From assembly GCA_048938895.1 (NCBI GenBank), contig JBHLLU010000023.1:2147-63088 (forward strand): 60,942 nt of DNA. Direction: 5' to 3'. Shown here piece by piece: positions 12,548 through 60,155 of this stretch. The translations under genes and the position numbers were made by a program. Source of the DNA: Promethearchaeota archaeon. GTDB taxonomy: Archaea > Asgardarchaeota > Lokiarchaeia > Sigyniarchaeales > SOKP01. Every line of letters starts with the position of its first letter. The stretch's first letter is position 1. Under the pieces are notes generated by a model. That model had not been told where the DNA came from and ran no database searches. It saw only the letters and a list, made by a program, of their open reading frames with translations.

Positions 12548-13769
12548 TTAATAATAATAGACAACTAAATTTTCAGGAATCGATAATTCTTCTTCTTTGT
12601 TTTTACATGCAATAAACTTTATTTTCATGTTTAAAGTAAGTGATAGAAGTCTTTTCGTTAGAATTCCATCAATAATTAAGTATTGTGTATCCTTAAAAGC
12701 TCTAATTTTTTCAAAAATTTCATTTACAGGCATTTCGAATAATTTTTCAAGACTTTTAGTAAAACCAATACTATATCCAGATTGAATATTATTTATGGCT
12801 TCGATAATTACTGATTCGTCTTTGATTTTTGCTTTCTTTAGGTATTTTTGAAGTGTGGTTTCTTTAGTATCCAATTTTTTTCCTTTTGAACTCTCTGGTT
12901 TTATATCTTTTAAATCTTTTAGACTTCTTTTATTTTGTAGAGCCTTGATCATTTGCTTTCTTGTTAATTCTTCAACCTCATACCCATCAGGAGCCCTTGC
13001 AACAAAGTCTAGTTTTATAAGCTGCATTAATTCATTTAAAATAATGGTACCCCCACGATCACCATCAAGAAAACACGTCACAGTCTTTTTCTTTTTCGTT
13101 AAATTAATAACTGATTTGGGGATTTGAGTACCTTGAACTGCAATTGAGTTTTTAATACCAATTCGCAGTAAATTTAAAACATCAGCTCGTCCTTCTACAA
13201 TAATGAGATCGGGATTCTTCTCTACTTCTGGACCTGCAGGTAGATTACCAGGCCCCCAAGATATGATTTCTCCAAGTTTTATATCCTTATCTATCTTTTC
13301 TTCAATTTCACTCTGTTCTAATGATTTCTGATCCCATTGCTTTAGAAGTTCAGCAGCTCTTTCTATAATTTTCTTACGTTTTGTTTCACGCACATCTCGA
13401 ATTTCGATGAGAGAAATTTCTGCTTCGCATGGACCAACTCGGGAAACAGTTTCAACAGTCGCCGCCAATAGTGCGGTCTCCTTTCGTGTTAGAGAGGAAG
13501 GAATTTTGATAATCCCTTCTGAAATACCCTCTTTAGAAATATTTTCTACTTCAATCCTTCCAATTCGTCCAGATTTTTGTAGATCTCTCAAATCCAAATC
13601 TAAAAGAAGACCTTCAGTATAGCCGATTTGCCGAAAAGGCTATTGAATTCTATCTTTGGCCGAAAATGGCGCCGACTATGTCGCTTTTTTCAACTACACC
13701 CTTAATTGTGAATTTAACTTCTATAATATATTTAGTTGTGAACTCATTTTGATCTGTAATCTTGATCAC
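12548..13769 (-). CDS. dnaG: Archaeal DnaG (exosome-associated TOPRIM protein), spliced: exon 1 13769-13656, exon 2 13618-12548, 394 aa
   Basis: Exon 1 (GTG, after AGGAAG) MIKITDQNEFTTKYIIEVKFTIKGVVEKSDIVGAIFGQ joins TEGLLLDLDLRDLQKSGRIGRIEV; TOPRIM IIVEGRADV and DGDRGG. The ORF track shows only the exon-2 part. Confidence 0.9.
13619..13655 (-). other. 37-nt BHB/BHL-type intron in dnaG mRNA
   Basis: AGATAGAATTCAATAGCCTTTTCGGCAAATCGGCTAT; central helix GGCC/GGCT, 5' bulge AAA, intron helix GAT/ATC, exon helix ATTTTC/GAAGGT; contains in-frame TAG. Confidence 0.85.
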
Positions 13770-14047
13770 TTCCTTTCTGTTAATTAAATAAATTTCTAAT
13801 ATAAACTCAAATTTTATTTTATCTTAGGATTTAAATAATAGCTTGAATAATTTTGATTTTTATGAATCTATTTCTATATGAACTTTTTTTCTGTGATTAT
13901 AAACTTATAAGCATCATAATTGATGATTATAATTAATTTAATTAAATCAAGAATATATTTTTTGTCAATTTTTAAATTGATTGATTAGTTTTTTATGTCA
14001 TATTTGTTTTTGTAATATAATTCGAAAAAAGTATGATTTAATGCCAA

Positions 14048-15064
14048 ATGGAAAAAATTATTGTATTAGGAGGAAAAGGAGGAGTTGGTAAAAGCACCAT
14101 TAGTGCCGCTACTGCTGTAACTTTATCAGATCTCCTTCCAGATAAAAAAATATTACTAATATCTTTTGATATGGCACATAATCTTTCAGATTTATTTAAT
14201 TCTGAAATAGGAAATAAATTAACACCTTTAACAGAAAATCTCTGGGCAATCGAGCCTGATCCTAATATAAATGCAAAAAAATACACAGATAATCTAATAA
14301 TTAAGATGAAATCATTAATGAAGGAAATGCCTATTATTGGTTTGATTCCCCAATTAGATACTTTTATAGATACAACTTTTACTGCGGATTCCATCCCTCT
14401 GGCACTTAAGAACGCGATGTTTTTTCAGGAAATTCTGGATGCAGAAAATGAGCAATCTATGCAATTTGATATAATTATTGCTGATTTTCCCCCCACTGGA
14501 AATATGGTAGCCTTATTCGAGATTCCTGAGGATCAAGTTAAGGTTGTATTGAAATATTCCCTGAATTTTTACAATTCTATTAAGGAGGCGGTTAGAGAAT
14601 TCTCTAAATTGTTTCGTAAATTAATTAAACCATTTAATGATTCTAAGAAACGAAAAGAACTGGGAAAGGAGATCTTTCAAATGTTAGAAGAACTAGAAAA
14701 ACGAGGTGAGAGAATAACAGAATTAATTCATACGATCGGGTCTTTGAGACTTGTTACCATAGCGGAAAAACCAAGTTTTGAAGAAATAAAAAGAGCACGG
14801 GATTTAACAAAGAAATATATTAAACTTGATGGCATTCACATTAACTTGATAACTCCTCAATCCAAGAAATGTGATTTTTGCAATAATATCCGGTCAATTC
14901 AGCTTAGTTATGTCGAAGAAATAAAAAAGGAATTTGAAAATTTAAAGATCTGGGAATCAAATAGATTAGAACAAGAACCATTTGGAGTAAATGGATTAAA
15001 AAATTTAGCTTATGAAATTTATGGAAATTCTACTCCTGAAGAAATATTAAAACCAAATATGTAA
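14048..15064 (+). CDS. ArsA/Get3-family ATPase
   Basis: GGKGGVGKST, SFDMAHNLSD, DFPPTG, CDFC motif. Confidence 0.85.
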   Translation: MEKIIVLGGKGGVGKSTISAATAVTLSDLLPDKKILLISFDMAHNLSDLFNSEIGNKLTPLTENLWAIEPDPNINAKKYTDNLIIKMKSLMKEMPIIGLIPQLDTFIDTTFTADSIPLALKNAMFFQEILDAENEQSMQFDIIIADFPPTGNMVALFEIPEDQVKVVLKYSLNFYNSIKEAVREFSKLFRKLIKPFNDSKKRKELGKEIFQMLEELEKRGERITELIHTIGSLRLVTIAEKPSFEEIKRARDLTKKYIKLDGIHINLITPQSKKCDFCNNIRSIQLSYVEEIKKEFENLKIWESNRLEQEPFGVNGLKNLAYEIYGNSTPEEILKPNM

Positions 15065-15102
15065 ATAATAAAAAAATTTTAAGTTTTAAAATACAACAAT
15101 AT

Positions 15103-16371
15103 TTAGGTTCCTTCTTCATAACCATGGATGTAATTATATTGTTCCTTTGTTAAAGTATCAATCTCAACACCCATGGATTTAAGCTTTAAAAAACCAACTT
15201 TATCATCTATGTCAGTGGGAACTTCAATTATTCCCGGTTTCAAAGAGTTCTTATTTCTGACTATGAACTCAGACATCAGGGATTGAAGAGCAAAAGACAT
15301 ATCCATAACCTCACTCGGGTGCCCCTCAGATAAAACAAGGTTGGCTAATCTCCCTTTAGCAAGTAGATAGACTCTTTTGCCATTAGGAAGGATCAGTTCT
15401 TCAACATTAGAACGAATAGGATTTATCTCCTTTGAGTATTCGTATAATTCTTTTGTTGGAATTTCAATGTCAAAATGCCCAAGATTGCCTAAAATGACTC
15501 CATCCTTTAAACTATTGAACATCACTTTCGTTGGGGCAATTACGTGTTTGCACCCTGTAGCTGTCAGAATTATATCTGCATTTGGTAATGTTTCAGCAAT
15601 CGGCATTACATTAAAACCCGCGAATTTAGCCTGAAGTGCTTTTATTGGATCTACTTCGGTTATAGTAACATAAGCACCTAGTCCACGTGCTCTTAGTGCC
15701 ATCCCACTACTACAATGCCCATAACCTGCAATGACAACATTTTTTCCTGCAAAAAGAACATGCATTCCATAAATTGCGGATACAATGCCTTGTCCTGTGC
15801 CTAATTCGTTATCAAATTGATTTTTACATCTAGCATCATTGACGGGGAATAAAGGTACTTTCAAAACTCCTTTTTTCTCCATTGCTCTAAATCTCTTGAC
15901 ACCTGTGGTGGTTTCTTCTTGACATGCAATAATAGTACCTGATTTTATTAGAACTTCAAATTCTTGATGAGCTGTAACTATCATATCAGCCCCATCATCA
16001 ATTAGAATATTTGGGTTAGCTTTTAGGCATTGTCTTATGCACCAATAAAATTCTTCATCTGTATTACCATGCCAAGCGAATACATTGATCCCTTCTTGCA
16101 CTAATGCTGCAGCTACATCATCTTGAGTTGATAATGGATTACTACCGCATAGATATACTTCTGCTCCTCCTGCTTTAAGAGTTCTAGCTAAAATCCCTGT
16201 TTCTTTTGTTATGTGTAAACATCCAGCAATAGTTATACCTGTTAATGGCTTTTCTTTTTTAAATCTTTCACGAATAGTTTTAGCTGTTACAGGCATTTTA
16301 CTTTCAGCTAAGTATAATGCTTTTTTTCCTTTCTCTGCTAAACTCTCATCTGCTACTTTATGATTTACCAT
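15103..16371 (-). CDS. ahcY: S-adenosyl/inosyl-homocysteine hydrolase
   Basis: CLHITKET, SNPLSTQDD, EETTTG, FDN, GHPSEVMDMSFA. Confidence 0.95.
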   Translation of the reverse strand: MVNHKVADESLAEKGKKALYLAESKMPVTAKTIRERFKKEKPLTGITIAGCLHITKETGILARTLKAGGAEVYLCGSNPLSTQDDVAAALVQEGINVFAWHGNTDEEFYWCIRQCLKANPNILIDDGADMIVTAHQEFEVLIKSGTIIACQEETTTGVKRFRAMEKKGVLKVPLFPVNDARCKNQFDNELGTGQGIVSAIYGMHVLFAGKNVVIAGYGHCSSGMALRARGLGAYVTITEVDPIKALQAKFAGFNVMPIAETLPNADIILTATGCKHVIAPTKVMFNSLKDGVILGNLGHFDIEIPTKELYEYSKEINPIRSNVEELILPNGKRVYLLAKGRLANLVLSEGHPSEVMDMSFALQSLMSEFIVRNKNSLKPGIIEVPTDIDDKVGFLKLKSMGVEIDTLTKEQYNYIHGYEEGT

Positions 16372-16508
16372 TTAATTTCACTTTTTAATTTATATTAATA
16401 ATAATTTTAATTAACTAATAAAATTATTTTTGGTCAAAAGCTATAATTTTTATTAAAAAGCCAACATATAATTAATATTGATGGGAAAAACTAAAAAAGT
16501 GTTATTAT

Positions 16509-17480
16509 ATGAGTACTAACAAAAATCAGTTAGAATCACAAGATCTTATAAAAAATTTAATAGGAAGCACCAAATTTAACATTTCAAAACATTCGCGTAG
16601 TATTGGAGTCTCTAGACAAACATATCAAAACAAACTTGATGGTCTGAGAAAAAAAAAAATAATTAGCAATTTTACAATAAACATTAATCCAAATATTTTA
16701 CCCAATAATCTAAAATATGTAATGATTGAAATTAAAACCAACCCAAAAGAACCTGTATTGGTAAATAAGTTATTGAAAATCCCCCAATTAAGAATGTTGG
16801 ATGGGATTATTGGAGAATTTTCTTTATTTGCTTTATTCATCTTTAAATCCCCCCAAGAATATTATAATATTTTGAATACAATCGATAGAATAATGTCAAA
16901 ATCATATTTTAAGAAATATCAAATTATCGAAACTATCAAAGTGTTTAAAACAAATGGCATTAGTTTGGATAAGTTTAACAGTGAAAACATTAGTTTGAAC
17001 ATCGAATTAGATGATATTGATTTTAATATCTTAACTATATTAAGAGATGGTCAAGGACTTAAACCAATATCTACGTATGAAATTAGAGAATTTTTCAATG
17101 AAAAACTTGATATAGAATTATCACAATCTACTATTCATAATAGAATTAAAAGATTAGAAAAGAATGGTGTGATTTTGAATTATGCCGTTAATTTTTCTCC
17201 ACCTAAGATTGGATTTAAGGGAAAGTACTTACTTCGGATTAAGCCAAAAGATCCTTCAAAATATAGAGATATCGCTCTTAAGTTGGAAAAAAGTAGAAAC
17301 ATTACTGATTTATTTAGAATAGGGGAACAATATGGTCTATTTGCTATAGTTAGAGTAAAAGAAATTGAAGATTATGCCAAATTTATTAGAGATTTATATA
17401 GTTCCGTAGAAATAGAAGATACTTATACAAATTTTGTATTAGATGAGTTAATTGTTTTTACAAATTTTATAATTTCTTAA
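16509..17480 (+). CDS. Tandem (double) Lrp/AsnC transcriptional regulator
   Basis: Two HTH+RAM units (GVSRQTYQNKL; LSQSTIHNRIKRLEKNGVI). Confidence 0.8.
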   Translation: MSTNKNQLESQDLIKNLIGSTKFNISKHSRSIGVSRQTYQNKLDGLRKKKIISNFTININPNILPNNLKYVMIEIKTNPKEPVLVNKLLKIPQLRMLDGIIGEFSLFALFIFKSPQEYYNILNTIDRIMSKSYFKKYQIIETIKVFKTNGISLDKFNSENISLNIELDDIDFNILTILRDGQGLKPISTYEIREFFNEKLDIELSQSTIHNRIKRLEKNGVILNYAVNFSPPKIGFKGKYLLRIKPKDPSKYRDIALKLEKSRNITDLFRIGEQYGLFAIVRVKEIEDYAKFIRDLYSSVEIEDTYTNFVLDELIVFTNFIIS

Positions 17481-17598
17481 CAAGAATACATTTCCTTTTT
17501 GGATCTATACAAATCAGATTTTACTAAATAATTAATAATTTTGGGTTATTAGAGAACTTAAGATGATCAAAAATAATCCATTGAATTAATCTCTCTTA

Positions 17599-19692
17599 TT
17601 GAAAAGAATGAGCAATTTTTTTGAGCTTTTAGAAAATAGAATTGGTTTTTCAAGAATAGGACGGATGAATTTATCAAAAGATAAAAAATTCTTTATCAGA
17701 ACTCCGAATGTTATTATTCCAATCAAAAATGTATTAATGAAACAATTTAATTTTATACAAGAATTTGAAGATCATGATTTATTCATTATATCTAAAGAGA
17801 TTTTTCTTAAAATTGGCTTTTTAAGAGAAAAATTTAGGGATACTGGTTTTATTTTTCATCATCCAGGTACATTGGAAAAATTTGAAAGTATCCTTTTAAA
17901 GAATTTAGATATTTTTTCAGAGGATAATGTTCTATCAATCATACCATTCAATATACCTACTACTGCTATGGGGCGAGAATTTGCAAAGAGAGAAATAGAA
18001 TCTTATATTAGTAATGCAGCAAAGATATTGGAAACTCATCGTAGTATTAACTTTGGTTTAACAATTAGACTCTTCGATTATTCAGAATTATTAGACTTAT
18101 ATTTACCAATTATAAAAGCAAATGAAAATATAAGAGTTTTAAATCTACATGGAATTTTTGATAACTTTAACAATTTTAGGAATATTGTCAACATAATTTT
18201 AAATTTAAAAAGCAAATTGGACAATAATCTTGTTTTAATGGCTTCTGGGAGAATTCTTCCAAAATTTTACCCGATTCTGGTGTATTTAGGAGTAGATTTA
18301 ATTGATTCTACATTTTTATTATATTTATCAGCAGAAAGTTTCTATGATACAATTGAATATTTATTGCCAATTTATAAAGTTAAATACTTCCCCTGTTCTT
18401 GCGTTGCATGTAAAGGAAATTTAAAAAATTTGTGTGATGTTAAACATTCCATAGATAAAATAGATTTACTTTGTTTACATAATCTAATTTCCGCTAATAA
18501 TTATATGATGAAGGTAAAACAATATCTTCGATTTGAGGATTACCGTGCATTTGTTGAGAAATCGTCTTTAGATGATACAAATATAATATCAACATTGAAA
18601 ATCTTAGATAGAGATTATTTCGATTTTGTAAGATATGATACACCAATTACTCAAAAGGATAAGAAAATAAAATGTTTAGGCCCTTCATCTTATGATCGTC
18701 CTGATTTTAGAGAATTTAGGGAGAGAACTGTGAATATATTTAAGCCAGAAGAATGGACCACTTTAATCATTCTACTTCCATGTTCTGCAAAAAAGCCCTA
18801 CTCTACTTCGAAATCACATAAATTATTTCACAACTCAATAAGAAAATTTCCAGAGTTTCCAAATTTTCAAGAAATAATTATTACTTCTCCTCTTGGAGCT
18901 ATTCCAAGGCAGCTAGAAAATCTATATCCAGTAAATTCATATGATATCTCTGTTACTGGAAATTGGGATGAGGAGGAGAAAAAAATTACCTCGAAGATGC
19001 TATTAGATCTTTTAAATAAGTATGATAAATCAATTCCAATTATTTCTCATCTTGAAGGAGAGTCGCTTGATATAGCAAAAAAGATTACATCTAGTTTAAC
19101 AAATAATTTCTTTATCTCAGTTGTTAATGAAAATCCAACTTCAAATGAATCCCTTACCATGCTTGAAAAATTAATACAAGAACATAAAAATGATTATAAA
19201 CCTAAGAAATGTTTATCAAAGGACAATTATTTATCAAAATCTTGGATTCGTAAATTAATTTATATATTAGATTATCAATTCGGAACTGGTTCAGGAATTA
19301 AGATAATTAAAAATGATTTAAAGTTAAAAAAAGCTAAAGCCAACCAACAAATTAATTTAATAGATATAAATACAAAGGAAAATCTAGGTTCGTTTATAAC
19401 CTCAACGGGTCAGATTAGTTTGAGCATTACCGGAATGAATCGTCTAGATCAAATACCATTTTCAATAGATTCAAATTTGATAGTATTTGATGGAAAAAGC
19501 ATTCGAGGGAATAATTTATTTCGAGCAGGTATTTTAGGTTATAGCTTGAATTTAATCCCAGAAAGTTATGTTAGAATTATTGATAAAGATAGAATTAATA
19601 TAATTGGGGTTGGAAAACTAATCGTTGGAACAAATTTTATAAAAAATTCTAAAACTGGAAGAATTGTTGAAATATATGAAAAAAAAAAATAG
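17599..19692 (+). CDS. arcS: Archaeosine synthase subunit alpha (TgtA2)
   Basis: TGT-like N-terminus, CSCVAC...H, LLPCSAKKPYSTSKSH, TSPLGAIPRQLE..YP...YDI.VTG.W, C-terminal PUA-like region. Confidence 0.85.
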   Translation: MKRMSNFFELLENRIGFSRIGRMNLSKDKKFFIRTPNVIIPIKNVLMKQFNFIQEFEDHDLFIISKEIFLKIGFLREKFRDTGFIFHHPGTLEKFESILLKNLDIFSEDNVLSIIPFNIPTTAMGREFAKREIESYISNAAKILETHRSINFGLTIRLFDYSELLDLYLPIIKANENIRVLNLHGIFDNFNNFRNIVNIILNLKSKLDNNLVLMASGRILPKFYPILVYLGVDLIDSTFLLYLSAESFYDTIEYLLPIYKVKYFPCSCVACKGNLKNLCDVKHSIDKIDLLCLHNLISANNYMMKVKQYLRFEDYRAFVEKSSLDDTNIISTLKILDRDYFDFVRYDTPITQKDKKIKCLGPSSYDRPDFREFRERTVNIFKPEEWTTLIILLPCSAKKPYSTSKSHKLFHNSIRKFPEFPNFQEIIITSPLGAIPRQLENLYPVNSYDISVTGNWDEEEKKITSKMLLDLLNKYDKSIPIISHLEGESLDIAKKITSSLTNNFFISVVNENPTSNESLTMLEKLIQEHKNDYKPKKCLSKDNYLSKSWIRKLIYILDYQFGTGSGIKIIKNDLKLKKAKANQQINLIDINTKENLGSFITSTGQISLSITGMNRLDQIPFSIDSNLIVFDGKSIRGNNLFRAGILGYSLNLIPESYVRIIDKDRINIIGVGKLIVGTNFIKNSKTGRIVEIYEKKK

Positions 19693-20776
19693 CATCATAA
19701 ATCAGGAATCTTTTTTTGTAGAGCGGATTAAATATTTAAGGCAAAAAGCTTTGAATAAAAGGAAAAGCTTAAGTGCGGTGTTATTAGAACAACCAGTAAG
19801 TTTTTGGATAAAAAGCGATAGGCTAATCAATGAAATAGGAAAAGAATTTACTATTATTCTAAGGACGAAAGGTTGCAATTGGGCTCTTGGGGAATCTGGT
19901 GGATGTACTATGTGTGGATATATACAAGATGCGAATATTGGAGGCATCAGTCAAGAACAAGTTATAAAGCAATTTGATTATGCATTTAATAACAAAATTA
20001 AAGAAATCATAGATGATGAAGAAAATTTTATTCTGAAGATTTTTAATTCTGGGAGTTTTTTTGATGATGAGGAGATATCTAATGATGCTAGGAGACATAT
20101 CTATGAAAAAATTGAAGAAATTGAAAATATTAAGGAGTTTGTGGTAGAAAGTAGAATAGAATACATAAATTCTGGTAAATTAAGGGAATTAAAAGAAAGC
20201 CTTAAAAAAAAATACATAGAAATTGGGATTGGAGTTGAAACTGTTAATGATTATATTCGAAATTATTATATTAATAAAGGTACATCATTTAATGATTTTA
20301 GAACTGTATTAAATCAATGTAAGGAAAGCCAGATTGGAGTAAAATCATATATTTTATTAAAACCACCCTTTCTTAATGAACAGGCAGCCATTGATGATTG
20401 TATTAATTCGGTAAATACTTTGATAAATTTAGGTGTCAATACAATTTCAATTAATCCATTAAATATTCAAAAAGGCACATTAGTTGAAAATCTATATCTA
20501 CAGAATAGATACAGGCCCCCATGGTACTATTCCCTCTTTAAAGTCTTTAAAAAATCACTAACGGAGGAGAATTTAAAAGGGGTACGTATCCTATCAGATC
20601 CTTCTGGAGCATCTACAAAAAGAGGTATCCATAACTGCTTAAAAAGAGAATGTGAGACATCATCATTAAATATGCTTAGAAAGTTTACCCTTTCTCAAGA
20701 TCTTAACGTTCTAGATCAGACAGAATATGAGTGTGAATGTAAGAGACAATATCAATTTGAAAAACTCTTTCATTGA
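19664..20776 (+). CDS. Archaeosine synthase radical SAM subunit (RaSEA)
   Basis: LRTKGCNW.....GCTMCG, KIFNSGSF, VESR, LLKPPFL, YRPPW; adjacent to arcS. Confidence 0.85.
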   Translation: MLKYMKKKNSIINQESFFVERIKYLRQKALNKRKSLSAVLLEQPVSFWIKSDRLINEIGKEFTIILRTKGCNWALGESGGCTMCGYIQDANIGGISQEQVIKQFDYAFNNKIKEIIDDEENFILKIFNSGSFFDDEEISNDARRHIYEKIEEIENIKEFVVESRIEYINSGKLRELKESLKKKYIEIGIGVETVNDYIRNYYINKGTSFNDFRTVLNQCKESQIGVKSYILLKPPFLNEQAAIDDCINSVNTLINLGVNTISINPLNIQKGTLVENLYLQNRYRPPWYYSLFKVFKKSLTEENLKGVRILSDPSGASTKRGIHNCLKRECETSSLNMLRKFTLSQDLNVLDQTEYECECKRQYQFEKLFH

Positions 20777-20956
20777 TCTTTTTGTTAATTTGCTCTGTGA
20801 TCTTAGTTGTTCATTTTATATGTTGTATAGGTTTGACGAAAAAAGAGAATTATATTAATAAGGGATTAATTGCCATTTTTGTAAGAAAAACCATTATGTT
20901 TAAATATTAGCCACCATCTTTTATTTTAATTTTTAACCCCCAAATAAGGGAATCTC

Positions 20957-21208
20957 GTGAAAAAGAACTGGGTTAAATTAAATCTATTCTATATTGGAAA
21001 ATCTAAAAAACATCAAATTTTTAGAGCAAAACAGTGGAATAGAAATCTTGAAAAAGTGTTTAGACAACCAGTTTATAACGAAAAATACGAAAAAATTGGA
21101 TATATCAAGGACATATTCGGTCCGATTGACTTTCCTTTTATTTCAATTAAAGCCTTACCTGACCAACATTTTGATACAAATCTAAAGGTTTATACCAAAC
21201 TAACCTAG
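20957..21208 (+). CDS. gar1: H/ACA RNP protein Gar1
   Basis: KIGYIKDIFGP..FP.ISIK; typical position upstream of tfb. Confidence 0.8.
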   Translation: MKKNWVKLNLFYIGKSKKHQIFRAKQWNRNLEKVFRQPVYNEKYEKIGYIKDIFGPIDFPFISIKALPDQHFDTNLKVYTKLT

Positions 21209-50872: not shown

Positions 50873-53263
50873 TTGAAAATGAAACGTGTTATAATAATTG
50901 GTGGAGTTGCTGGTGGTGCTTCAACAGCAGCGCGTTTAAGACGTTTAAAAGAAGATTTTGAAATTATAATGTTAGATAAAGGTCCATATGTGTCATTTGC
51001 AAATTGTGGCCTCCCTTATTATATTGGAAATATTATTAAGGATCGTGAATCCTTAGAATTGGTGACCCCAGAGAGATTTCTTGAAAGGTTTAATATCGAT
51101 GTTAGGGTACACAATGAAGTAATTTCGATTGATAAGGAGAAAAAGATAGTTGGAATCAGAGATCTCAAAAAAAATAAGGAATATTCTCTAGAATATGATT
51201 TTTTGGTCTTAGCCCCAGGTTCAAAACCACTCGTTCCACCCTTTAAAGGCCTTGAGAATGTCCCACATTTTACTGTGTGGACAATTCCAGATGCTGTAAA
51301 AATAAGGCAATATATTGAAGAAACACCTATAAAGAAGGCTGTAATAGTTGGAGGGGGATTTATTGGTTTAGAGATGGCAGAAAATTTAGTAGAGAAAGGC
51401 GTAAGGGTAAAAATTGTTGAAATGCTAGATCAAGTTATGCCTCCTATTGATAAGGAAATGGCGCAGTTTATTCATCAGGAATTGATTCTAAATGGAGTTT
51501 GTCTTGTCTTAGAAGACCCAGTTGATTCTTTTGGAAGAACGGAAGATGGTAATCCTTTTGTTAAAACTAAAAGTGGGCGAATAATCGAAACAGATTTAAT
51601 TATTTTAGCCATTGGGATTAGCCCTCAAAATGAACTAGCAAAAACCGCAGGTTTAGATTTATCGGAAACGGGTTATGTTGTTGTTAATAACAGAATGGAA
51701 ACATCTGATCCAAACATATATGCTGTAGGGGATGTAGTGCAAGTTCAGCATCTTCAAACTCAAAACCCAATTTCAATGGCTTTAGCAGGTCCAGCAAATA
51801 AACAAGGAAGAATAGCAGCAGATAATATTGCTGGAAGAAATTCAGAATATATGGGTGTTTTAGGTGCTTCAGTTGTTAAGATTTTTGATGTAACTGTCGC
51901 CACTGTAGGATTAACTGAAAAGCAATTGAAAAACCTAGAGATTAAATATGATAAGATCTACATCCATCCCAACAATCATGCTGGGTATTATCCAGGTGCT
52001 ACTCCCATGGCTTTCAAACTCATTTTTGAAGTTCCTTCCGGTAAAGTTTTGGGGGCTCAAATAGTTGGAGGGCAAGGAAGTGAAAAAAGGATTGATGTAT
52101 TATCAACAATCATAAAAATGGGAGGAGATGTCTATGATCTAGAGGAATTGGAATTAACTTATGCTCCACCCTATGGTTCAGCAAAAGATCCCGTTAACAT
52201 GGCTGGATTTGTGGCGGCAAATTATCTCAAACAAGACATGCCCATATGGCATTGGCACGATTATACTATTATTTCTGCTAATGGGGGTCTTCTATTAGAC
52301 GTCAGAACTAAAGAGGAATTTTCGGCAAGAACTATTGATGGTTCAGTAAATATACCAATTGAAGAATTGAGAAATCGATTGAATGAACTTTCAGTGGATA
52401 AACCAATTTATGTATATTGTGAAGTAGGTTATAGGAGTTATTTAGCACTAAGAATTCTTTTGCAAAGTGGATTTAAGGAAGTGTATGAGTTGACAGGAGG
52501 ATTCAAGATTTTTGAGATGGCAAACGCTACAACAGAAGAAATTATGGCTGCCTGCGGAGGATCGGAAATAGTAATTGAAGAATTTGTACATGAAAAAGCT
52601 ATTGAAAGTGATGATTATATTGAAGTTGATGCTTGTGGACTTTCATGTCCAGGACCACTAAATGCATTGATTAAAGGTCTTGAAGAATTGCCTGAAGACA
52701 AGAAATTGAAAGTCTATGCAACAGATCCCGGTTTTAAATCTAGTGTTGAAGCTTACTCTAAATTAAATGAAGCGATAAAATTACTATCTCTTAGGAAAGA
52801 AAAAGGGATGTTAGTAGCAACCTTAGAAAAAATTCAACCTATTGAAGTTGTGGCAGCGGTAAAAAAGAAAACCAGAAAAGAATTGCGTCCTCCTGACGCC
52901 CCTCCAGTATCAAATATCAGTGCGGACGAACTTTTTGAAAGGATTGGCACTGAAGATGAACCACCGCTAATGATTGATGTTCGAACTCCCCAGGAATATA
53001 AGGGACCCCAAGGTCATATTAAAAATGCGAAATTAATTCCTCTTGGAGAATTAATGAATAATCCAGATGCTATTAAGGATTATAAGGATGAGGAAATAGT
53101 AGCAATATGTCATTCTGGCTCTCGCTCTATGATGGCGGCTCAAATTCTAGCACGTACAGGATTTAAAGATATTCGAAATTTAACGGGAGGAATGATGATG
53201 TGGCACAGGAAAGGTTATCCAGCAGAACTGGAAAAAAAAGGGATGACAGAGACTTATTATTAA
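50873..53263 (+). CDS. CoA-disulfide/persulfide reductase with rhodanese-TusA-rhodanese tail (Npsr-like)
   Basis: GGVAGG, SFANCG, GGGFIG, YAPPY; YCEVGYRS, GLSCPGP, ICHSGSRS. Confidence 0.85.
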   Translation: MKMKRVIIIGGVAGGASTAARLRRLKEDFEIIMLDKGPYVSFANCGLPYYIGNIIKDRESLELVTPERFLERFNIDVRVHNEVISIDKEKKIVGIRDLKKNKEYSLEYDFLVLAPGSKPLVPPFKGLENVPHFTVWTIPDAVKIRQYIEETPIKKAVIVGGGFIGLEMAENLVEKGVRVKIVEMLDQVMPPIDKEMAQFIHQELILNGVCLVLEDPVDSFGRTEDGNPFVKTKSGRIIETDLIILAIGISPQNELAKTAGLDLSETGYVVVNNRMETSDPNIYAVGDVVQVQHLQTQNPISMALAGPANKQGRIAADNIAGRNSEYMGVLGASVVKIFDVTVATVGLTEKQLKNLEIKYDKIYIHPNNHAGYYPGATPMAFKLIFEVPSGKVLGAQIVGGQGSEKRIDVLSTIIKMGGDVYDLEELELTYAPPYGSAKDPVNMAGFVAANYLKQDMPIWHWHDYTIISANGGLLLDVRTKEEFSARTIDGSVNIPIEELRNRLNELSVDKPIYVYCEVGYRSYLALRILLQSGFKEVYELTGGFKIFEMANATTEEIMAACGGSEIVIEEFVHEKAIESDDYIEVDACGLSCPGPLNALIKGLEELPEDKKLKVYATDPGFKSSVEAYSKLNEAIKLLSLRKEKGMLVATLEKIQPIEVVAAVKKKTRKELRPPDAPPVSNISADELFERIGTEDEPPLMIDVRTPQEYKGPQGHIKNAKLIPLGELMNNPDAIKDYKDEEIVAICHSGSRSMMAAQILARTGFKDIRNLTGGMMMWHRKGYPAELEKKGMTETYY

Positions 53264-53364
53264 TTAATTCTTATTTAATTTTCTTAATAGTCCGAATCCT
53301 TTGCAAGGATAATCAACCAATGACTATCGTTTATTTATTGGTTTCATTTTTTTCGGTTTTAAAT

Positions 53365-53589
53365 TTAAATTTTAGGTTTTCCTGATAACAGAATTAATAT
53401 TATCATAAAGACCAATCCAAACAAAAAGCTTATAATTGCAGAGATTGTTCTGTCATATACTATATATGGTTCTGTTGATGATGGTGGTATTGATCAACTT
53501 GAAATTCCCCAATTGATTAGATAACCTCCAAGAATAAAGAAAAAACCCATTAATAATAGCATAAATCCTCGTAAAATGGGATTCCTAAT
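53365..53589 (-). pseudogene. Small two-TM membrane ORF with in-frame TGA (pseudogene or recoded gene)
   Basis: AGGAGGG SD, ATT start: (M)RNPILRGFMLLLMGFFFILGGYLINWGISS*SIPPSSTEPYIVYDRTISAIISFLFGLVFMIILILLSGKPKI; TGA at 53496-53494. Confidence 0.5.
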
Positions 53590-53771
53590 CTAATTTCCCT
53601 CCTTAAATTTTAATTATTTTATGCATTATTCACATCGTATTTCAATATTTTCCTCTGTTTCTGCTTTTCTTTAAATTATAAGTAAAAAAGTTAAAATTCA
53701 GCAGAAATAATTTAAACTCAAATACATTCATCTAAATCGAAATTTCCAATTACAAAAATGAGGTAAATAAT

Positions 53772-54362
53772 ATGAAAGAAACTCCAAAAAAATTATACAC
53801 TGCCTATGTTGGCGAGAGTCAGGCTAGGAACCGCTATACATTCTTTTCAAAAATAGCCAAAAAAGAAGGATATGCATTAATCTCTGAAATTTTCCTTGAA
53901 ACCGCAAGTCAAGAATTGCAGCATGGAACTTGGTTTTATAAAATGCTCCAAGACTTCAAAAAAGAGGAATCTTTTTATGGAATGAAAGTACTGCCTGATG
54001 CTGAATTTCCAACAACCTACGGAACTACCATTGAAAATCTAAAATCTGCAATAGCAGGTGAAAATATGGAGTGGCAAACACTTTATCCTGATATAGCTGA
54101 AACTGCTGAAAAAGAAGGGTACCAGGATGTTGCCAAAAGAGTAAAAGCAATTGTAAAAGCTGAGAAACACCATTCTGAGAGATATGGGAAGCTCTTAAAG
54201 TTAGTTGGTGATGATGCATTTTTCAAACGTGGAAAAAAGGTTGTTTGGGTATGTATGGAATGTGGTTATGAAGTAGAAATGGATGCTTTACCCAATTCTT
54301 GGGTATGTCCTAGCTGCGGACATAGCAGAACATACTTCAGAAAGAAATGTGAGGATTTCTAA
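53772..54362 (+). CDS. rbr: Rubrerythrin
   Basis: GESQARNRY, E..H, GE..E, EKHH, CMECG...CPSC. Confidence 0.9.
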   Translation: MKETPKKLYTAYVGESQARNRYTFFSKIAKKEGYALISEIFLETASQELQHGTWFYKMLQDFKKEESFYGMKVLPDAEFPTTYGTTIENLKSAIAGENMEWQTLYPDIAETAEKEGYQDVAKRVKAIVKAEKHHSERYGKLLKLVGDDAFFKRGKKVVWVCMECGYEVEMDALPNSWVCPSCGHSRTYFRKKCEDF

Positions 54363-54449
54363 AAAAGTTAGTCAATTTTTAAATTAAAATCAAAATTTTT
54401 AAAAATCAAAATAGATGATTTTAAAAACAACAGAAATAGAATCTGTGAA

Positions 54450-54848
54450 TTGAATATGAAACAAAAAGAAATTTATAAGTGTAATGTGTGTGGGAAAGTA
54501 ATTGAAATCCTTAACCCAGCTGCTAAAGATACTATTTGTTGTGGTCAGTCAATGGTTTTAATGGAAGCCCAGACGAAAGACTGGAAGCTAGAGAAACATG
54601 TTCCTAAGATTACAATTGATGGGAATAAGGTTACTGTAGATGTTGGAATATCTATGGGAACTCCACATCCTATGACAGCTGAACACTATATTATGTGGAT
54701 TGAGTTAATCTGCAAAGATAACTGTTATAAACGACAAATGTTAAGTCCTGGAATGGAACCCAAAGCAACTTTCGTAGTCGCGGATACAAGTGGGCTAAAG
54801 GCTCGGGAATATTGTAATCTCCATGGATTATGGATTTCAGAAAAATAA
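54450..54848 (+). CDS. dfx: Desulfoferrodoxin (2Fe superoxide reductase)
   Basis: CNVCG, CCG, EKHVP, HPM...HYI.WI, CNLHGLW. Confidence 0.9.
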   Translation: MNMKQKEIYKCNVCGKVIEILNPAAKDTICCGQSMVLMEAQTKDWKLEKHVPKITIDGNKVTVDVGISMGTPHPMTAEHYIMWIELICKDNCYKRQMLSPGMEPKATFVVADTSGLKAREYCNLHGLWISEK

Positions 54849-54989
54849 ACACTTTTTTTTTATTTTATTTAAATATTTTAAAATAATTTTAAGATGATTA
54901 AACGCAATTATTATTATTATTAAAATCAAAAATATCCTCTGTTCTGAAAATATTCTCTGTAATGAAAAATTAAGGCAGATGTTAACTAG

Positions 54990-55535
54990 ATGAGTATTAA
55001 AGCAATATTTCTTGATAGGGATGGAACATTAATTGAAGATAAAGATTATGCCTATAAAGTGGAAGATTTAGAAATCTTACCAGGAGTAATTGAAGGTCTC
55101 AAATTACTTCAAAAGAGATATATATTTATAATAGTAACTAATCAATCAGGAATCGGTAGAGGTTACTATACAACAGAGGATTTTCATAATTTTAATAATC
55201 ACTTAATTAAATTACTACATAAAGAAAATATAGAGGTAGTAAAAACTTTTTTTTGTCCTCATTTAAAAGAGGAAGATTGTGAATGTAGGAAACCAAAAAC
55301 TGGATTTATTGAGGAAATTGTTGTAGAATTTAATGTTAGCATTCAAGATTCTTGGATGATGGGTGATCATCCCTCTGATATAGAATTTGGAATTAATGCT
55401 GGTTGCAAAACTGTTTTTCTCACTACAGGACATGGTAACAGACATAAAGAGGAATTGGAATCCCTCGGAATTAGTCCAACGATGATCAGCGACAATTTTT
55501 TAGAAGCAGCAAAAAAAATTTTACAGTATGATTAA
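54990..55535 (+). CDS. gmhB: GmhB/HisB-type HAD phosphatase
   Basis: FLDRDGT, TNQSGIGRG, CPH....CECRKP, GD..SD. Confidence 0.8.
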   Translation: MSIKAIFLDRDGTLIEDKDYAYKVEDLEILPGVIEGLKLLQKRYIFIIVTNQSGIGRGYYTTEDFHNFNNHLIKLLHKENIEVVKTFFCPHLKEEDCECRKPKTGFIEEIVVEFNVSIQDSWMMGDHPSDIEFGINAGCKTVFLTTGHGNRHKEELESLGISPTMISDNFLEAAKKILQYD

Positions 55536-55616
55536 CTGAAATAAGCGATTATTATAAAAATCTACATTCTTTTTAGTCAAATATAAGATTGGTTAAGAAT
55601 ATATTTCAGGATATTA

Positions 55617-56105
55617 ATGTACTATCGAAAACTGAATAACGCTGCAATGTGGAAAAAGATCCAAAAATTGAGAGATCTTATCAAACTGGAAACTAATTTC
55701 AAGGAAAGAGTGTGTTGGAATTGCAGTAAAGATCTCAACATTTATGATTTCCTCAGTGATAATGTTGATTTTGCTCCAGAATATATCTTAAAATTATGGC
55801 AAAACCCAATGTTAGAGTTCCATTGCTGTGAATGTTTTAAAAATCTCAAAATTGATGAGCTACAGAAGATAGAGCAAGAATTACCTACGAGGGTATGTTT
55901 AAATTGTCATGCATTGATAGATATTTATAAATTTAGTAAATTTCATGACTATTTGAAAATCCATGAGCTAAAGAAATATTGGTTAGATCCCAAGTTTAAC
56001 ATCTTTTGCGATAACCTATGTCAGCGTAAATACTTTAAGGTTTATTACGACTTTTTAAGAAACCGAAAGTTGAAAAGGCAAAGGGAATTAACTAAAAATA
56101 CATAA
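55617..56105 (+). CDS. Cys-rich duplicated Zn-finger hypothetical protein
   Basis: RVCWNC..L.IY.F...CCEC and RVCLNC...IDIY.F...CDNLC. Confidence 0.6.
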   Translation: MYYRKLNNAAMWKKIQKLRDLIKLETNFKERVCWNCSKDLNIYDFLSDNVDFAPEYILKLWQNPMLEFHCCECFKNLKIDELQKIEQELPTRVCLNCHALIDIYKFSKFHDYLKIHELKKYWLDPKFNIFCDNLCQRKYFKVYYDFLRNRKLKRQRELTKNT

Positions 56106-56107
56106 GG

Positions 56108-57604
56108 CTATTCTGGGTGTTTTCGTTTGTATTCCAATCTTCTTTGTTCGTGTAGTTTGGCAACCTCTTTTTTCATCTCTGCTACAACTTTTCCAGTTAG
56201 TGGATAAAATTTTACCCACACAATTAAACCAATCAAACAAACTATTCCTGGTATAAGAGTCATACTCATATTAACACTTAAAGAAGCCAAGAAAATTCCC
56301 TTGGTAGCATCTAATCCATCTATAGCTTCTACGTATATTAACCCAAATGCTGTCATTAAGGCAGGTGGGATTGCTAAGGCTACACTAATCATAGGTTTAC
56401 TTAGTAATGGACCCACACCTGCATAGAGCCCTTCCCTTCTCTCCCCGGAAATTTTCCAATAATCAAAATCTATTGTATCTGCTCTCATTGGGTTATGTAA
56501 AATAAAGTCTCCTGCAAAACCAAGCATGAAAATTGAAATACCAATCGAAACAAGAATCCAGTTATTTGATAATCCGGCAAAAAAGCTTATAAAACTCCCT
56601 ATAGTAAGCATCGTTAAAGAATAAGTTATAGACGCTTTAGTTGAGATTTTAGCTGAAATTCTTAATATCAAGGGTATTGATATAATTAAAAAAATTACTG
56701 GTCCAATCCAAAAAATTATCATATTAATCCCTTCCATTTGTGCGAGAACCCAGGTTAAATAGAAAGGTAAACTCACCATAACCATATTGACTAAAAACAC
56801 AGAAACTCCATCATAAATCACATAAACTCTGAAAGAAGGATTTTTAAAGGCAAGTTTTATTGACTTTATTAAAGGTGTCTTCTCCCCAGGGATATGTTCA
56901 CTATGCTCAGGAACGTATTTTGATAAGATTAAATATGGAACCACTCCAAAAATGGCAATAACTATCACAAGTATTTGAAATTGAGCGATCGATTCCCTTG
57001 TTGGTTCAGCTAGAAATATAACAGGAATGATAAATCCTATTATAATCGCCGGTAAGTTAAAAACAGTACTTATCAATTGAATTTTTTCTCGTTCTCGTTG
57101 ATTTAATGTCATCTGGGGTAATAACGCAACATGAGCAATTAGAACCATAGTAAATAATGTATCATAAGCAATTTGGGTAATTAGATACCATGTAAAAAGC
57201 CAAACTTGAATTGTAAGATCATTTGGGTGTCCTCTCCATGCACCTGGTGGAAAAAACACTAAAGCAAAACATACACTAAATATCGGGGCTCCATATTTAA
57301 TATAAGGGATGTATCTTTGAACTTCTCCCTTCTTCTTGTTATAATATCGAGTATTACCAATCATATTCCCAAAAATGGGGTCGTTGATTAGATTCCAAAC
57401 AGCATACACAATCTGGGCTAGAATTATCCAAATATTTAATAATCCCATCCATCCATAATAAAACGCTTGGATTACACCCATAACTGCGCTATAGAAGGTA
57501 CCTGGCACATTAGCAAAACCATAGGATAATTTTTCTTTTAAGTGTACTCTCTCAAAAATGATTTCTTTTTGTTCTGTTTTTTCGCGCATTAAAATAATCC
57601 CCAA
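56108..57604 (-). CDS. MFS transporter, GPH/MelB type
   Basis: WNLINDPIFG, ADTIDFD, RREGLY; about 12 TM helices. Confidence 0.85.
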   Translation of the reverse strand: MGIILMREKTEQKEIIFERVHLKEKLSYGFANVPGTFYSAVMGVIQAFYYGWMGLLNIWIILAQIVYAVWNLINDPIFGNMIGNTRYYNKKKGEVQRYIPYIKYGAPIFSVCFALVFFPPGAWRGHPNDLTIQVWLFTWYLITQIAYDTLFTMVLIAHVALLPQMTLNQREREKIQLISTVFNLPAIIIGFIIPVIFLAEPTRESIAQFQILVIVIAIFGVVPYLILSKYVPEHSEHIPGEKTPLIKSIKLAFKNPSFRVYVIYDGVSVFLVNMVMVSLPFYLTWVLAQMEGINMIIFWIGPVIFLIISIPLILRISAKISTKASITYSLTMLTIGSFISFFAGLSNNWILVSIGISIFMLGFAGDFILHNPMRADTIDFDYWKISGERREGLYAGVGPLLSKPMISVALAIPPALMTAFGLIYVEAIDGLDATKGIFLASLSVNMSMTLIPGIVCLIGLIVWVKFYPLTGKVVAEMKKEVAKLHEQRRLEYKRKHPE

Positions 57605-57710
57605 TTTGTGAATTAAATTTTAATTTCTAAAAATAATTAAGATTTTTCAATCTTTTGAAAATAATCTAAAAAAAAATCTAAAATAAAAGAAAATAGATAT
57701 ACAAATTTGA

Positions 57711-58889
57711 TTAAATTCTTTTCTTCCCTAAGAAAGGCATTGCATGTTCATAATTTTTCATAACAAATCTAGAAATGACGATTCTCTGAATCTCACTTGT
57801 TCCCTCATAAATTTGATAAAGTTTTGCATCTCTAAATAATTTTTCAACAGGTTGAGTTCTTAGATAACCATAACCTCCGAAAATTTGAATAGCTTCAGTG
57901 GTAACGTTCATAGCTACATCTGATGCAAACGCTTTAGCTATCGCAGAACTCAGGTTGTTATCCATGCCTTGATCAGCTTCCCAAGCAGCTTTATAAGTTA
58001 ATAATCGTGCGGCTTCTATATCCTTATACATATTTGCTATTTTTTCTTGAATGACTTGGTAATTTCCAATTGGTCTACCAAAAGCCTCTCTTTTATTGGC
58101 ATAATCAATTGAATACTCCATAGCGGAGCGAGCACATCCAGTGGCAAATGCTCCTATTGCCGGACGTGTATGAGCAAAAGTTTGCATAGCTAAAACAAAT
58201 CCTCTTCCTGGTTTTGCAAGAATGTTTTCCTTGGGGATTCGAACATTTTTTAATCCCACTGATACTGTGTTGGATGCTCTTTGACCTAGTTTTGGAATAT
58301 GCTTACCTAATTTAACTCCCTCGTTTTTAGTATCTACTATAAATGCCGCAATCCCTTTATGCTTTTTTTCAGGGTCTATAGTTGCAAAAACGGTGATGTA
58401 ATCAGCAACACCACCATTAGTAATCCAAAATTTATTACCATTTAGAATAAACTCATCTCCATCTTGCTCCGCCTTACATTTCATTCCAGCTACATCAGAT
58501 CCCATCCCTGGCTCAGAAGTTGCAAAAGCTATTAGTTTAAATTCGTTAATTAATTCAGAGAGAATTCTTTGTTTTTGCTCTTCATTACCACCAATTAAGA
58601 TTGGTTCTGCTCCAAGATTGTTATCAAAAAGGGAAGTGGCAATACCAGGACATGCTGAAGACATTTCTTCAACAACAATGCAAGAATCCAATAATCCATA
58701 TCCTAGTCCACTATACTCTTTGGGTATCATTAAATTCAAAAGCTTCTCTTCCCACGCCTTTTTTATGACGGGCAAGGGAAATTCTTCAGACTCATCGTAT
58801 TTACTAGCAACAGGTAATACTTCATTAATAGCAAATTCTCTTGCCTTTTTTTGTAAAGCCTTTTGTTCCTCAGTTAACACAAAATCCAT
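57711..58889 (-). CDS. Acyl-CoA dehydrogenase
   Basis: SEPGMGSD, GNKFWITNG, QIFGGYGY, IYEGTSEIQR. Confidence 0.95.
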   Translation of the reverse strand: MDFVLTEEQKALQKKAREFAINEVLPVASKYDESEEFPLPVIKKAWEEKLLNLMIPKEYSGLGYGLLDSCIVVEEMSSACPGIATSLFDNNLGAEPILIGGNEEQKQRILSELINEFKLIAFATSEPGMGSDVAGMKCKAEQDGDEFILNGNKFWITNGGVADYITVFATIDPEKKHKGIAAFIVDTKNEGVKLGKHIPKLGQRASNTVSVGLKNVRIPKENILAKPGRGFVLAMQTFAHTRPAIGAFATGCARSAMEYSIDYANKREAFGRPIGNYQVIQEKIANMYKDIEAARLLTYKAAWEADQGMDNNLSSAIAKAFASDVAMNVTTEAIQIFGGYGYLRTQPVEKLFRDAKLYQIYEGTSEIQRIVISRFVMKNYEHAMPFLGKKRI

Positions 58890-58905
58890 TATTTTTTTCC
58901 TCCTC

Positions 58906-60155
58906 TTACTCCATTTTTTTAATAAGTTTATCTACGATCTCTTTAAAGTCTAACTCTTCTGGTTTTGGTACATATCGAATTTTGATTAGCTCGTCCATAA
59001 CGTCTATCTTAGTTTCTTTCATTATATCTGCAATTTCTTGAGCTGCTTGACCCGACCATCCGTATGAACCAAATGCTAAACCAATTTTATTCATTGGTTT
59101 CAACCCTCTTTGATATGATAAATATTCTGCTACTGTAGGATATAATCCATTGTTTAACGTTGGACTTCCAACTAATATGGCTTTTGCTTTCATTGCCTCT
59201 GTAATAACATCTGAATAATCTGCGGTAGTTAATTTAAACCTTTTTACAGGAATACCTCGATGATTGATTTGATTTGCTAAAGCTTTAGCAATCTTTTCAG
59301 TACTGCCCCACATAGTATCATACACAATTAGTACTGATTTCTCATCAATTTCTCCTTTACACCATTTAGTATATTTCTCAAGAATTTCTGGGATATGACT
59401 TCGCCAGCATACTCCATGAGAAGGGCATATTATATCAATGGGTAAGGAACCTACTTTTGGTAATGCTTTCGCAATTAACCCAGATAAATGCAATAAAATA
59501 TTAGCATAATATTTTTCGGCTTCTTGCATTATCTCACATAAATCATTCTCATCATCCCACCTTTTTGTGGTTGCTAAATGTTGCCCGAAAGCATCATTGG
59601 AAAATAAAACATTCTTTCCATTCTCATCAGTCATAAATGATACCATTGAATCTGGCCAATGTATCATAGGTATTGGAACAAAAGTAAATGATTTCCCATT
59701 TCCAATATCCAGTGTATCACCCTCTTTTACACCTCTAATTCGATTAAAGATATCATCACTTACCTCTTGGTGATAGTAGGCTTTTAACGTATCTATTCCT
59801 CTTTCTGAGGCAATCAATTGGCATGTATTAGGTAAATGATTAATAATTAATGGAAATGAGCCTGAATGATCAGGTTCAACATGGTTAGTAATGAAATAAT
59901 CAATTTCCTCTAAGGCACATACTTCTTGGATGTTTTTTAAAAAATATTCAAAATATGGTCGTTTAACAGTATCTATTAGTACCGTATTCTCTCCACTCTT
60001 CACGATATACGCATTGTAGCTTGCTCTAATCAACCGAAATGGCTAAAATAACTGAATTTTTTTTCATTTGAGCCCCTATGCGTACTATATCCGTGAAAAT
60101 TGCGAACCTCAAAATCGACATACCCTACAAAGTATACATCTTTCATTAATTCCAT
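58906..60155 (-). CDS. fprA: Flavodiiron protein, spliced: exon 1 60155-60068, exon 2 60020-58906, 400 aa
   Basis: Exon 1 MELMKDVYFVGYVDFEVRNFHGYSTHRGS joins SYNAYIVK...IDTVK; HVEPDHSG, HWPD, SNDAFG, PSHG, flavodoxin TMWGST and GSYGW. Confidence 0.9.
60021..60067 (-). other. 47-nt canonical BHB intron in fprA mRNA
   Basis: ATGAAAAAAAATTCAGTTATTTTAGCCATTTCGGTTGATTAGAGCAA; central helix GCTC/GAGC, bulges AAA and AAG, intron helix TGA/TTA, exon helices GG/CT and TACGCAT/ATGCGTA; contains in-frame TGA. Confidence 0.9.

Follow-up and report, generated by a model that had tools for sequence, protein, structure and literature searches.

The stretch of DNA described here (the window; 60,942 nt) belongs to a metagenome-assembled genome (MAG) of the Promethearchaeota (Asgard archaea) and carries on its reverse strand two genes, dnaG encoding the DNA primase DnaG and fprA encoding a flavorubredoxin, which are each interrupted by a short insert. 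The match to the DnaG profile NF003108 is split into positions 1-26 in an upstream piece and positions 35-283 in the open reading frame (ORF) 12548-13597, and the match to the flavorubredoxin/FprA profile NF008887 is split into positions 4-33 upstream and 33-382 in ORF 58906-60033. For both genes the junction that is predicted upon removal of the insert corresponds to the sequence of uninterrupted orthologues in its length, to the nucleotide, and in its reading frame. A sequence-only reading of the window had assigned both inserts to introns of the archaeal bulge-helix-bulge (BHB) type, and this assignment is borne out by the split profile matches, by boundaries set with orthologues and by BHB folds. 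With a probability of roughly 0.78 we regard the insertions in dnaG and fprA as archaeal BHB introns in pre-mRNAs, which have separate histories and are members of a population of unique short introns, and a sequence motif present in both of them as no mark of a family.

The source assembly (G000 in the following; 4.65 Mb in 174 contigs, 31% G+C) is 98.7% complete with an estimated contamination of 7.5%, and it was compared with a genus set of 54 genomes and, in detail, with one congener (G002). DnaG gave one match in G000, and the nearest DnaG loci that carry names stem from MAGs labelled Promethearchaeota or Promethearchaeia (Asgard archaea). DnaG contigs that fall within this genus are also found under the record titles Hodarchaeota, Odinarchaeota, Thorarchaeota and Hermodarchaeota and, in one case, as a Nanopelagicaceae bacterium (L097, L108, L109, L119, L124-L126, L130, L131, L137, L138, L143, L167, L172); the labels of these contigs are inconsistent or their bins are mixed.

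Table 1. Features of the two interrupted genes in the window, and messenger RNA introns that differ between the source assembly (G000) and its congener (G002). Positions refer to the window unless a contig is named.
Feature	Position	Strand	Description
dnaG exon 1	13656..13769	-	ends ...GCC AUU UUC GGC CAA; presumed GTG start 13767-13769; NF003108 positions 1-26; abuts exon 2 in intron-less orthologues
dnaG intron, 37 nt, relaxed BHB	13619..13655	-	boundaries set by 71 gapless loci; covariance model of orthologous introns 54.2 bits
dnaG central 4-bp helix, exon strand GGCC	13658..13661	-	partner GGCU 13621-13624 in intron; 4/4 pairs in 30/30 intron alleles
dnaG copy of shared motif	13631..13649	-	AATTCA 13644-13649 and TAGCCTTTTCGG 13631-13642, the latter forming the distal GCC-UUUUC-GGC hairpin
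dnaG exon 2	12548..13618	-	starts ACU GAA GGU, stop included; ORF 12548-13597 matches NF003108 35-283; junction GQ^TEGLL as in orthologues
fprA exon 1	60068..60155	-	ATG 60153-60155; ends ...GGG GCU CAA, phase 1; NF008887 4-33; abuts exon 2 in 24 orthologous loci
fprA intron, 47 nt, canonical hBHBh'	60021..60067	-	GCUC (60070-60073) pairs with GAGC (60023-60026); bulges AA^A and AA^G; related contigs shorter by exactly 47 nt; G000 only (congener comparison)
fprA copy of shared motif	60034..60058	-	AATTCA 60053-60058 and TAGCCATTTCGG 60034-60045, the latter forming the distal hairpin
fprA outer exon-exon helix	60007..60085	-	GUACGCAU 60078-60085 pairs with AUGCGUAU 60007-60014; present in the minimum free energy fold
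fprA exon 2	58906..60020	-	starts GC UAC AAU, stop included; ORF 58906-60033 matches NF008887 33-382
PurM/ThiL-like gene intron, 30 nt	C101:4435-4464		G000 only (congener comparison)
cdhD intron, 30 nt	C117:20988-21017		G000 only (congener comparison)
rpoA1 intron, 85 nt	C159:9088-9172		G000 only (congener comparison)
rpoN intron, 31 nt	C21:3087-3117		G000 only (congener comparison)
thioredoxin intron, 30 nt	just before WCGPC		G002 only (congener comparison)
LOR-like gene intron, 30 nt			G002 only (congener comparison)
thiolase-like gene introns, 34 and 31 nt around a 16-nt micro-exon	G002:C3 ~76486-76568 (L236 16486-16568)		G002 only; start of G000 C141 lacks both

Structure and history of the dnaG and fprA introns

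The BHB of the dnaG intron consists of the central helix GGCC/GGCU, a 5' bulge AA^A and a 3' bulge AU^A (^ marking the splice site), and an inner helix of 3 bp. Its 3' bulge is followed by two further unpaired bases and then by an outer 5-bp helix (UUUUC/GAAGG), and because the outer helix begins only after these two extra bases the motif is of the relaxed form. The central helix retains four of four pairs in all 30 distinct intron alleles, in which six strand combinations occur, and in some of these alleles the intron answers a change in the exon's Gly codon with a compensatory one of its own (GGAC/GUCU, GGGC/GCCU). The intron is thus held by covariation with the Gly codon to which it pairs.

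In fprA the boundary that best fits an intron-less orthologue likewise allows four of four central pairs, flanked on the outside by 2 bp, a 2x2 internal loop and 8 more bp, and on the inside by 3 bp. The fold in which this BHB is enforced (-26.7 kcal/mol) lies within 0.9 kcal/mol of the minimum free energy (MFE) fold (-27.6 kcal/mol), and the probability of the central pairs is 0.26. The 5' bulge reads AAA in both introns and both possess an internal hairpin, as the sequence-only reading had described.

The site of the dnaG intron could be followed in 110 loci of relatives, 106 of them usable: 71 are gapless and 35 carry 29-43 nt at exactly this position. These loci overlap in the genomes from which they were taken, and after deduplication 90 distinct alleles were left, 31 of them with the intron. 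Placing presence and absence on the dnaG gene tree, as had been proposed, requires at least ten intron changes, five of which are forced by well-supported branches, and reveals an old intron: the basal lineages of the main clade all bear it, and none out of 500 shuffles was as clustered. One old gain followed by vertical inheritance and many precise losses is the simplest reading of this distribution. Most of the dnaG intron alleles contain the distal hairpin core GCCATTTCGGC and the tail ...TCGGCTAA, and both resemble the exon end GCC ATT TTC GGC CAA; in locus L011 the exon reads GCCATATTCGGCCAA and the intron contains GCCAATTCGGCTAA and then TTCGGCTAA. The GCC-WUUUC-GGC hairpin and the ...UCGGCUAA tail of the dnaG intron thus appear to be degenerate copies of the end of the exon, which suggests that the intron may have originated by local duplication.

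The history of the fprA intron is different. Orthologues of fprA were detected at E <= 1e-150 in 41 of the 54 genus genomes, and 40 of the 42 places outside G000 are open frames of 403-428 aa as compared with 378 aa in G000, the other two being truncated matches; in each of the 24 loci viewed the intron site is contiguous. Public DNA runs of the likely source sample contain one 2740-nt contig in which the insert is present (2 differences over 1919 nt). A second contig of that sample and contigs from two other studies are shorter by exactly 47 nt, with 65 bases reduced to 18 or 114 reduced to 67, and one of the intron-less contigs is approximately 92% identical over 548 nt. Since the intron is absent from 40 informative orthologues of the genus and from closely related environmental contigs, these sequences identify it as a recent, lineage-specific gain. 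Intron-less relatives already possess the exon strings for the central helix and for most of the outer one (in L256 as ...ACGCATCGGGGCTCA... and ...AATGCATAT), and judged from these sequences the site was predisposed to an intron, as the helix-forming exon strings largely pre-existed.

Further introns in the genus and their presumed splicing

The sequence-only reading had expected many such introns genome-wide. A self-contained scan of the genome, searching for a 4-bp central helix and the fusion of two open frames, returned 1,361,923 candidates, or 6,740 if both 3-bp flanking helices were required, and it was dropped because adjacent genes on the same strand also satisfy it. A tblastn search with congener ORFs against G000 detected the fprA intron alone in the first 400 kb and missed that of the PurM-like gene, and was replaced by parsing the gaps of a blastn alignment between G002 (2,338,180 nt compared; ~78% DNA identity to G000) and G000, which comprises 1.57 and 0.74 Mb in high-scoring segment pairs of >=300 nt. 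Indels of at least 11 nt which break a frame that is open in the other genome were flagged. Introns common to both genomes, stop-free introns that keep the frame and introns within ~25 codons of a gene end are undercounted, because this comparison replaced the self-contained scan.

The screen flagged 32 ORF-breaking indels, which were sorted into classes by eye from the alignments. Nine rows represent nine mRNA introns (one row contains both introns of the thiolase-like gene), and 20 indels lie at gene ends or between genes or are in-frame differences in N-terminal length; the others are one tRNA intron, one unexplained 28-nt insert and one run of N. The run of N at G000 C49:5939-6074, inside a coding region, is a scaffolding gap and no intron. 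The tRNA intron is an extra one of ~29 nt in a tRNA gene of G002 (C6, ~112.6-112.7 kb) and is absent at G000 C33:7756-7812, so that tRNA introns, too, are polymorphic between the two genomes. The 28-nt insert is found in G002 (C2:148496-148551 versus G000 C88:57061-57087; …GGGC[ATAATCAAGGCACGAGATGCTCGCAACCTTT]GAAATCC…) in a conserved stretch that has no convincing reading frame, and possibly represents an intron of a non-coding RNA.

Besides those of dnaG and fprA, eight BHB introns in mRNAs were thereby recognized, four in G000 only and four in G002 only (Table 1; the labels thioredoxin, LOR-like and thiolase-like are read from translations, with no family search behind them). All of these sequences are unique. 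In all ten introns at least three of the four central pairs form and the inner helix measures 3-11 bp, and their exons stay open and conserved. Random pairs of positions reach the structural combination (>=3/4 central pairs, inner helix >=3 bp) in 1.08%. For nine of the ten the boundary is the one that best fits the intron-less orthologue; that of dnaG was derived from the separate comparison of orthologues. The expectation of many introns was correct in kind, with four more in G000 and four in the congener, but these do not carry the shared motif. All nine polymorphic introns come from the first 1.57 Mb, the following 0.74 Mb having yielded none; their density is thus uneven, and approximately six introns per half genome is a rough figure from which introns shared between the species are missing.

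The polarity of gain and loss was checked with outgroups for fprA and partly for rpoA1, in which the codons GHFGH^IELA form an intron hot spot (L312-L318). G017, G045 and G069 contain a 30-nt intron directly after the His codon, G000 and G022 an 85-nt intron four bases downstream, and in G062 both positions are occupied with a 4-nt micro-exon in between. Two of the eight genomes fetched have no intron, and most of the genus has open frames of the intron-less length; in G043 rpoA1 has an insert of 65 nt, for which no solution with two introns and the conserved peptide passed the thresholds. The rpoA1 exon just upstream of the hot spot reads CATTTCGGGCAT, near to the dnaG exon and to the core of the shared motif. 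Together with the recent gain in fprA and the repeated loss in dnaG, these data describe a population of mRNA introns which are short (mostly 30 nt), individually unique in sequence and subject to gain and loss within the genus.

The EndA and RtcB genes were classified as had been suggested. G000 encodes two paralogues of the splicing endonuclease EndA (202 and 200 aa, 30% identical), each with the domains PF01974 and PF02778, and one RtcB (566 bits). In an alignment read against the catalytic residues of this enzyme, the presumed catalytic His is kept in the first EndA subunit only. An (alpha-beta)2 type of EndA with an L1 insert is reported for Asgard archaea (PMC5829648), and the two predicted subunit genes of G000 fit this type.

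In the mechanism which we propose, the transcript would fold so that an exon tetramer shortly before the 5' splice site pairs with an intron tetramer shortly before the 3' splice site, a pairing that would place each cut inside a 3-nt bulge. The two-subunit endonuclease would cut after the second base of the bulge on both sides and RtcB would ligate the exons, by which GQ^TEGLL would be restored in DnaG and GS^SYNAY in FprA. The genes rpoA1, rpoN and cdhD and the PurM-like gene are single-copy in G000 yet interrupted; with an assembly that is 98.7% complete, it follows that the cell cannot live unless they are spliced.

Two readings without splicing were considered. The inserts could be errors of sequencing or assembly, or could mark decaying pseudogenes, as a MAG in 174 contigs with 7.5% estimated contamination might suggest. 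This reading is already contradicted and highly improbable: an independent contig has the fprA insert, the dnaG insert occurs at one exact site in 30 alleles from many assemblies together with compensatory changes, the exons are open and conserved, single-copy essential genes are hit (rpoA1, rpoN, dnaG), and every insert shows a BHB. Alternatively, ribosomes could read through the inserts by translational bypassing or programmed frameshifting without removal of RNA, since skipping 37 or 47 nt restores the frames and is in principle possible by bypassing. The conserved feature, however, is a BHB with covarying pairs exactly at the junctions, which is a substrate of EndA, and ten different inserts of 30-85 nt that have no common take-off or landing codons behave alike, which leaves hardly any credence for this explanation.

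The shared motif and the origin of the introns

The motif that had drawn attention to the two introns, AATTCA followed by TAGCCWTTTCGG, is present in both of them where it had been reported. Within the window the 12-mer occurs at these two places (Table 1), and it appeared in none of 100 shuffles. In the genome-wide search that had been proposed, the two-part motif is confined to the same two sites of the whole assembly, and the 12-mer alone has four. Among the ten mRNA introns two carry the motif. Across the 54 genus genomes the 12-mer has 44 matches versus 21 for a reversed control, and the 30 of its loci that were viewed lie in ordinary coding sequence. None of the seven sites of GCCWTTTCGG in the genome lies inside the 17 intron-bearing tRNAs among the 34 tRNAs called by ARAGORN, calls which are partly spurious as two of the introns (771 and 2807 nt) are surely false, and in the window Rfam and ARAGORN detect only an intron-less tRNA-Gly(UCC) (6711-6782, -). 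The distal hairpin is kept in the orthologous dnaG introns; AATTCA is not, and reads AAGTCA in the two nearest relatives (L094, L002).

The claim that the two introns differ only in the 4-nt strand pairing with the exon did not withstand comparison, as they differ by 10 nt in length (37 versus 47 nt) and have in common the 6-mer and 11 of the 12 core bases. With a profile of 21 dnaG introns from other species (nhmmer, genome-wide) the dnaG intron of G000 itself was recovered at E = 7e-6, and the fprA intron only at rank 12 (E=20, 7.9 bits). The covariance model that had been called for, comprising BHB and hairpin of the dnaG introns of other species, was applied to the 61-kb window with filters off and gave 54.2 bits for dnaG and, at the level of noise, 8.5 bits for fprA (E=3.4, rank 15 of 26). 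Among the 45 pairs of introns, dnaG and fprA score highest with 21 but are no outlier, being followed by unrelated pairs with 20, 19 and 18, scores which like the motif counts are approximate where the LOR-like intron (boundary mis-set) or two G002 introns (1-3 bases off) enter. A blastn-short search with six G000 introns against the genome retrieved no second copy, only chance matches of 12-19 nt.

Several observations weigh against the reading preferred here. The dnaG BHB is not the thermodynamic optimum, as its enforced fold reaches -16.1 kcal/mol versus -20.9 kcal/mol for the MFE fold and its central pairs have a probability of ~0 in a 101-nt context; the structure therefore rests on comparison and not on energy. 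Splicing of these introns in vivo is deduced from their sequences, and the duplication that may have given rise to the dnaG intron was read from the alleles by eye. The similarity of the dnaG and fprA introns is reached by 514 of 39,966 random genomic 47-mers and by 199 of 20,000 shuffles, and 20 of 2000 shuffles score as high as the fprA intron against all dnaG introns. Both share an architecture that is absent from the other eight introns, in which a short inner helix and an internal loop rich in A are followed by a distal GC hairpin of 3 bp with a WUUUC loop, and the core of the fprA intron, GCCATTTCGG, is the commonest core of dnaG introns in other species.

The architecture and the core, the occurrence of the 6-mer and the 11/12-mer in the same order (shuffle p ~0.01) and the recent gain of the fprA intron in the sole genome whose dnaG intron has AATTCA favour the view that both are copies of one mobile BHB intron. 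The string AATTCA...TAGCCWTTTCGG would then be a protein-binding or mobility signal, the strand pairing with the exon would be retuned at each site, and the intron would spread by reverse splicing or another transposition of RNA or DNA. A copy made after the recent gain in fprA should be nearly equal to its source; relatives of ~92% identity are without the fprA intron, yet the two introns align over 18 bases only, and a common origin is therefore not supported. Between species with 89% identity in DnaG, for comparison, orthologous dnaG introns show differences at 3 of 37 positions. The profile and covariance scores are at noise level, the pair leads the 45 by a single point, and there is no third copy in the genome and none in an intron context in the genus. 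Moreover, three of the four pairing bases would have to change before a transposed copy could be spliced. Among the marks of a mobile family, recent lineage-specific appearance at new sites is observed (fprA; five introns in G000 only and four in G002 only in 2.3 Mb); significant similarity across host genes is not, and neither is an own homing endonuclease or reverse transcriptase, the introns of 37 and 47 nt being too short to encode anything. The proposed family with a shared internal element thus has models at noise, no second copies and the motif in two of ten introns, and we consider such an origin improbable. Most likely, the motif is a chance or convergent resemblance of two GC hairpins in AT-rich introns.

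As to how unique introns arise, we tentatively suggest, as a possibility that seems to us still less probable than not by a wide measure, that the introns of Promethearchaeota emerge de novo at proto-splice sites by one process at the DNA level, in which a hairpin of ~23 nt would be inserted beside a copy of the six upstream bases. If the copied tetramer were self-complementary, the transcript would fold at once into a BHB and be spliced exactly. Seven of the ten introns measure 30-31 nt (noticed post hoc), and in four of the ten the exon tetramer is near self-complementary (GGCCAA/GGCUAA, ACGUAA/GCGUAU, UCGUAA/GCGUAA, AUAUAG/GUAUAA), so that exon 1 and the intron end in near-direct repeats of six bases, a pattern that looks like a target-site or tandem duplication. 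GAATTC is present in four of eight introns tested against an expectation of 0.13, and AATTC in five of eight, mostly at or in the hairpin loop (likewise post hoc); the exon-like tail of the dnaG intron also fits this suggestion.

Relation to known systems

Excision of short frame-shifting introns from mRNA in a non-spliceosomal manner is known from the splicing of HAC1 and XBP1, in which an endonuclease cuts paired stem-loops and a tRNA-type ligase, RtcB in animals, joins the exons. This splicing differs from that of the present introns in its endonuclease IRE1, in another RNA motif, in being regulated and in being restricted to a single gene, and no relationship is implied.

In a literature search that covered few subscription journals or supplements, no paper on BHB introns in protein-coding genes of Asgard archaea was found, and the archaeal mRNA introns of this type that were found are essentially those of cbf5 in Crenarchaeota. 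Here, one Asgard genus has at least nine host genes over two genomes, including those for the DNA primase DnaG, two RNA polymerase subunits and a subunit of acetyl-CoA synthase, with variation in presence and absence between species, micro-exons and at least one very recent gain. Automatic gene prediction will leave such genes truncated or split in Asgard MAGs, and the enzymes of tRNA splicing have many mRNA clients in these organisms. Close genomes that differ by single introns make the arrival of archaeal introns directly testable, and the de novo process, if true, would provide a route by which intron gain could be observed among the prokaryotes most closely related to eukaryotes; a link to spliceosomal introns is not shown by these data.

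The closest parallel to the dnaG intron is the BHB intron in the cbf5 pre-mRNA of Desulfurococcales and Sulfolobales, which is described as inherited from the ancestor of the clade and as precisely lost, secondarily, by some of its lineages (Yokobori et al., 2009; PMC2738675). The intron of cbf5 is removed by the tRNA splicing endonuclease, and dnaG shows the same pattern of an ancestral BHB intron in a protein gene that was then precisely lost. The case of cbf5 concerns one gene, whereas here at least six host genes are affected in about half of one Asgard genome, among them those for RNA polymerase subunits, and a congener has five introns in four genes. Unlike cbf5, the present genus exhibits a 16-nt micro-exon with an intron on either side and a gain that is demonstrably recent. 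In Thermoproteales, tRNA introns transpose and form sequence families across host genes (Fujishima et al., 2010, as cited in the accessible text of bioRxiv 10.64898/2026.10.13.758758); recurrent families of similar introns were looked for among the present introns, which do not form them. The tRNA genes of Asgard archaea are heavily interrupted, and the same preprint, in the part available, describes repeated gains, almost no sequence families and an arrival route that is not identified (bioRxiv 10.64898/2026.10.13.758758). These tRNA introns share with the present ones the BHB motif, presumably the enzymes and a parallel pattern of gain. The introns of dnaG, fprA and the other genes sit in mRNA, a term that does not occur in the accessible text of bioRxiv 10.64898/2026.10.13.758758, where the single use of "protein-coding" refers to neighbouring genes, and with an mRNA as host the reading frame enforces precision to the nucleotide.

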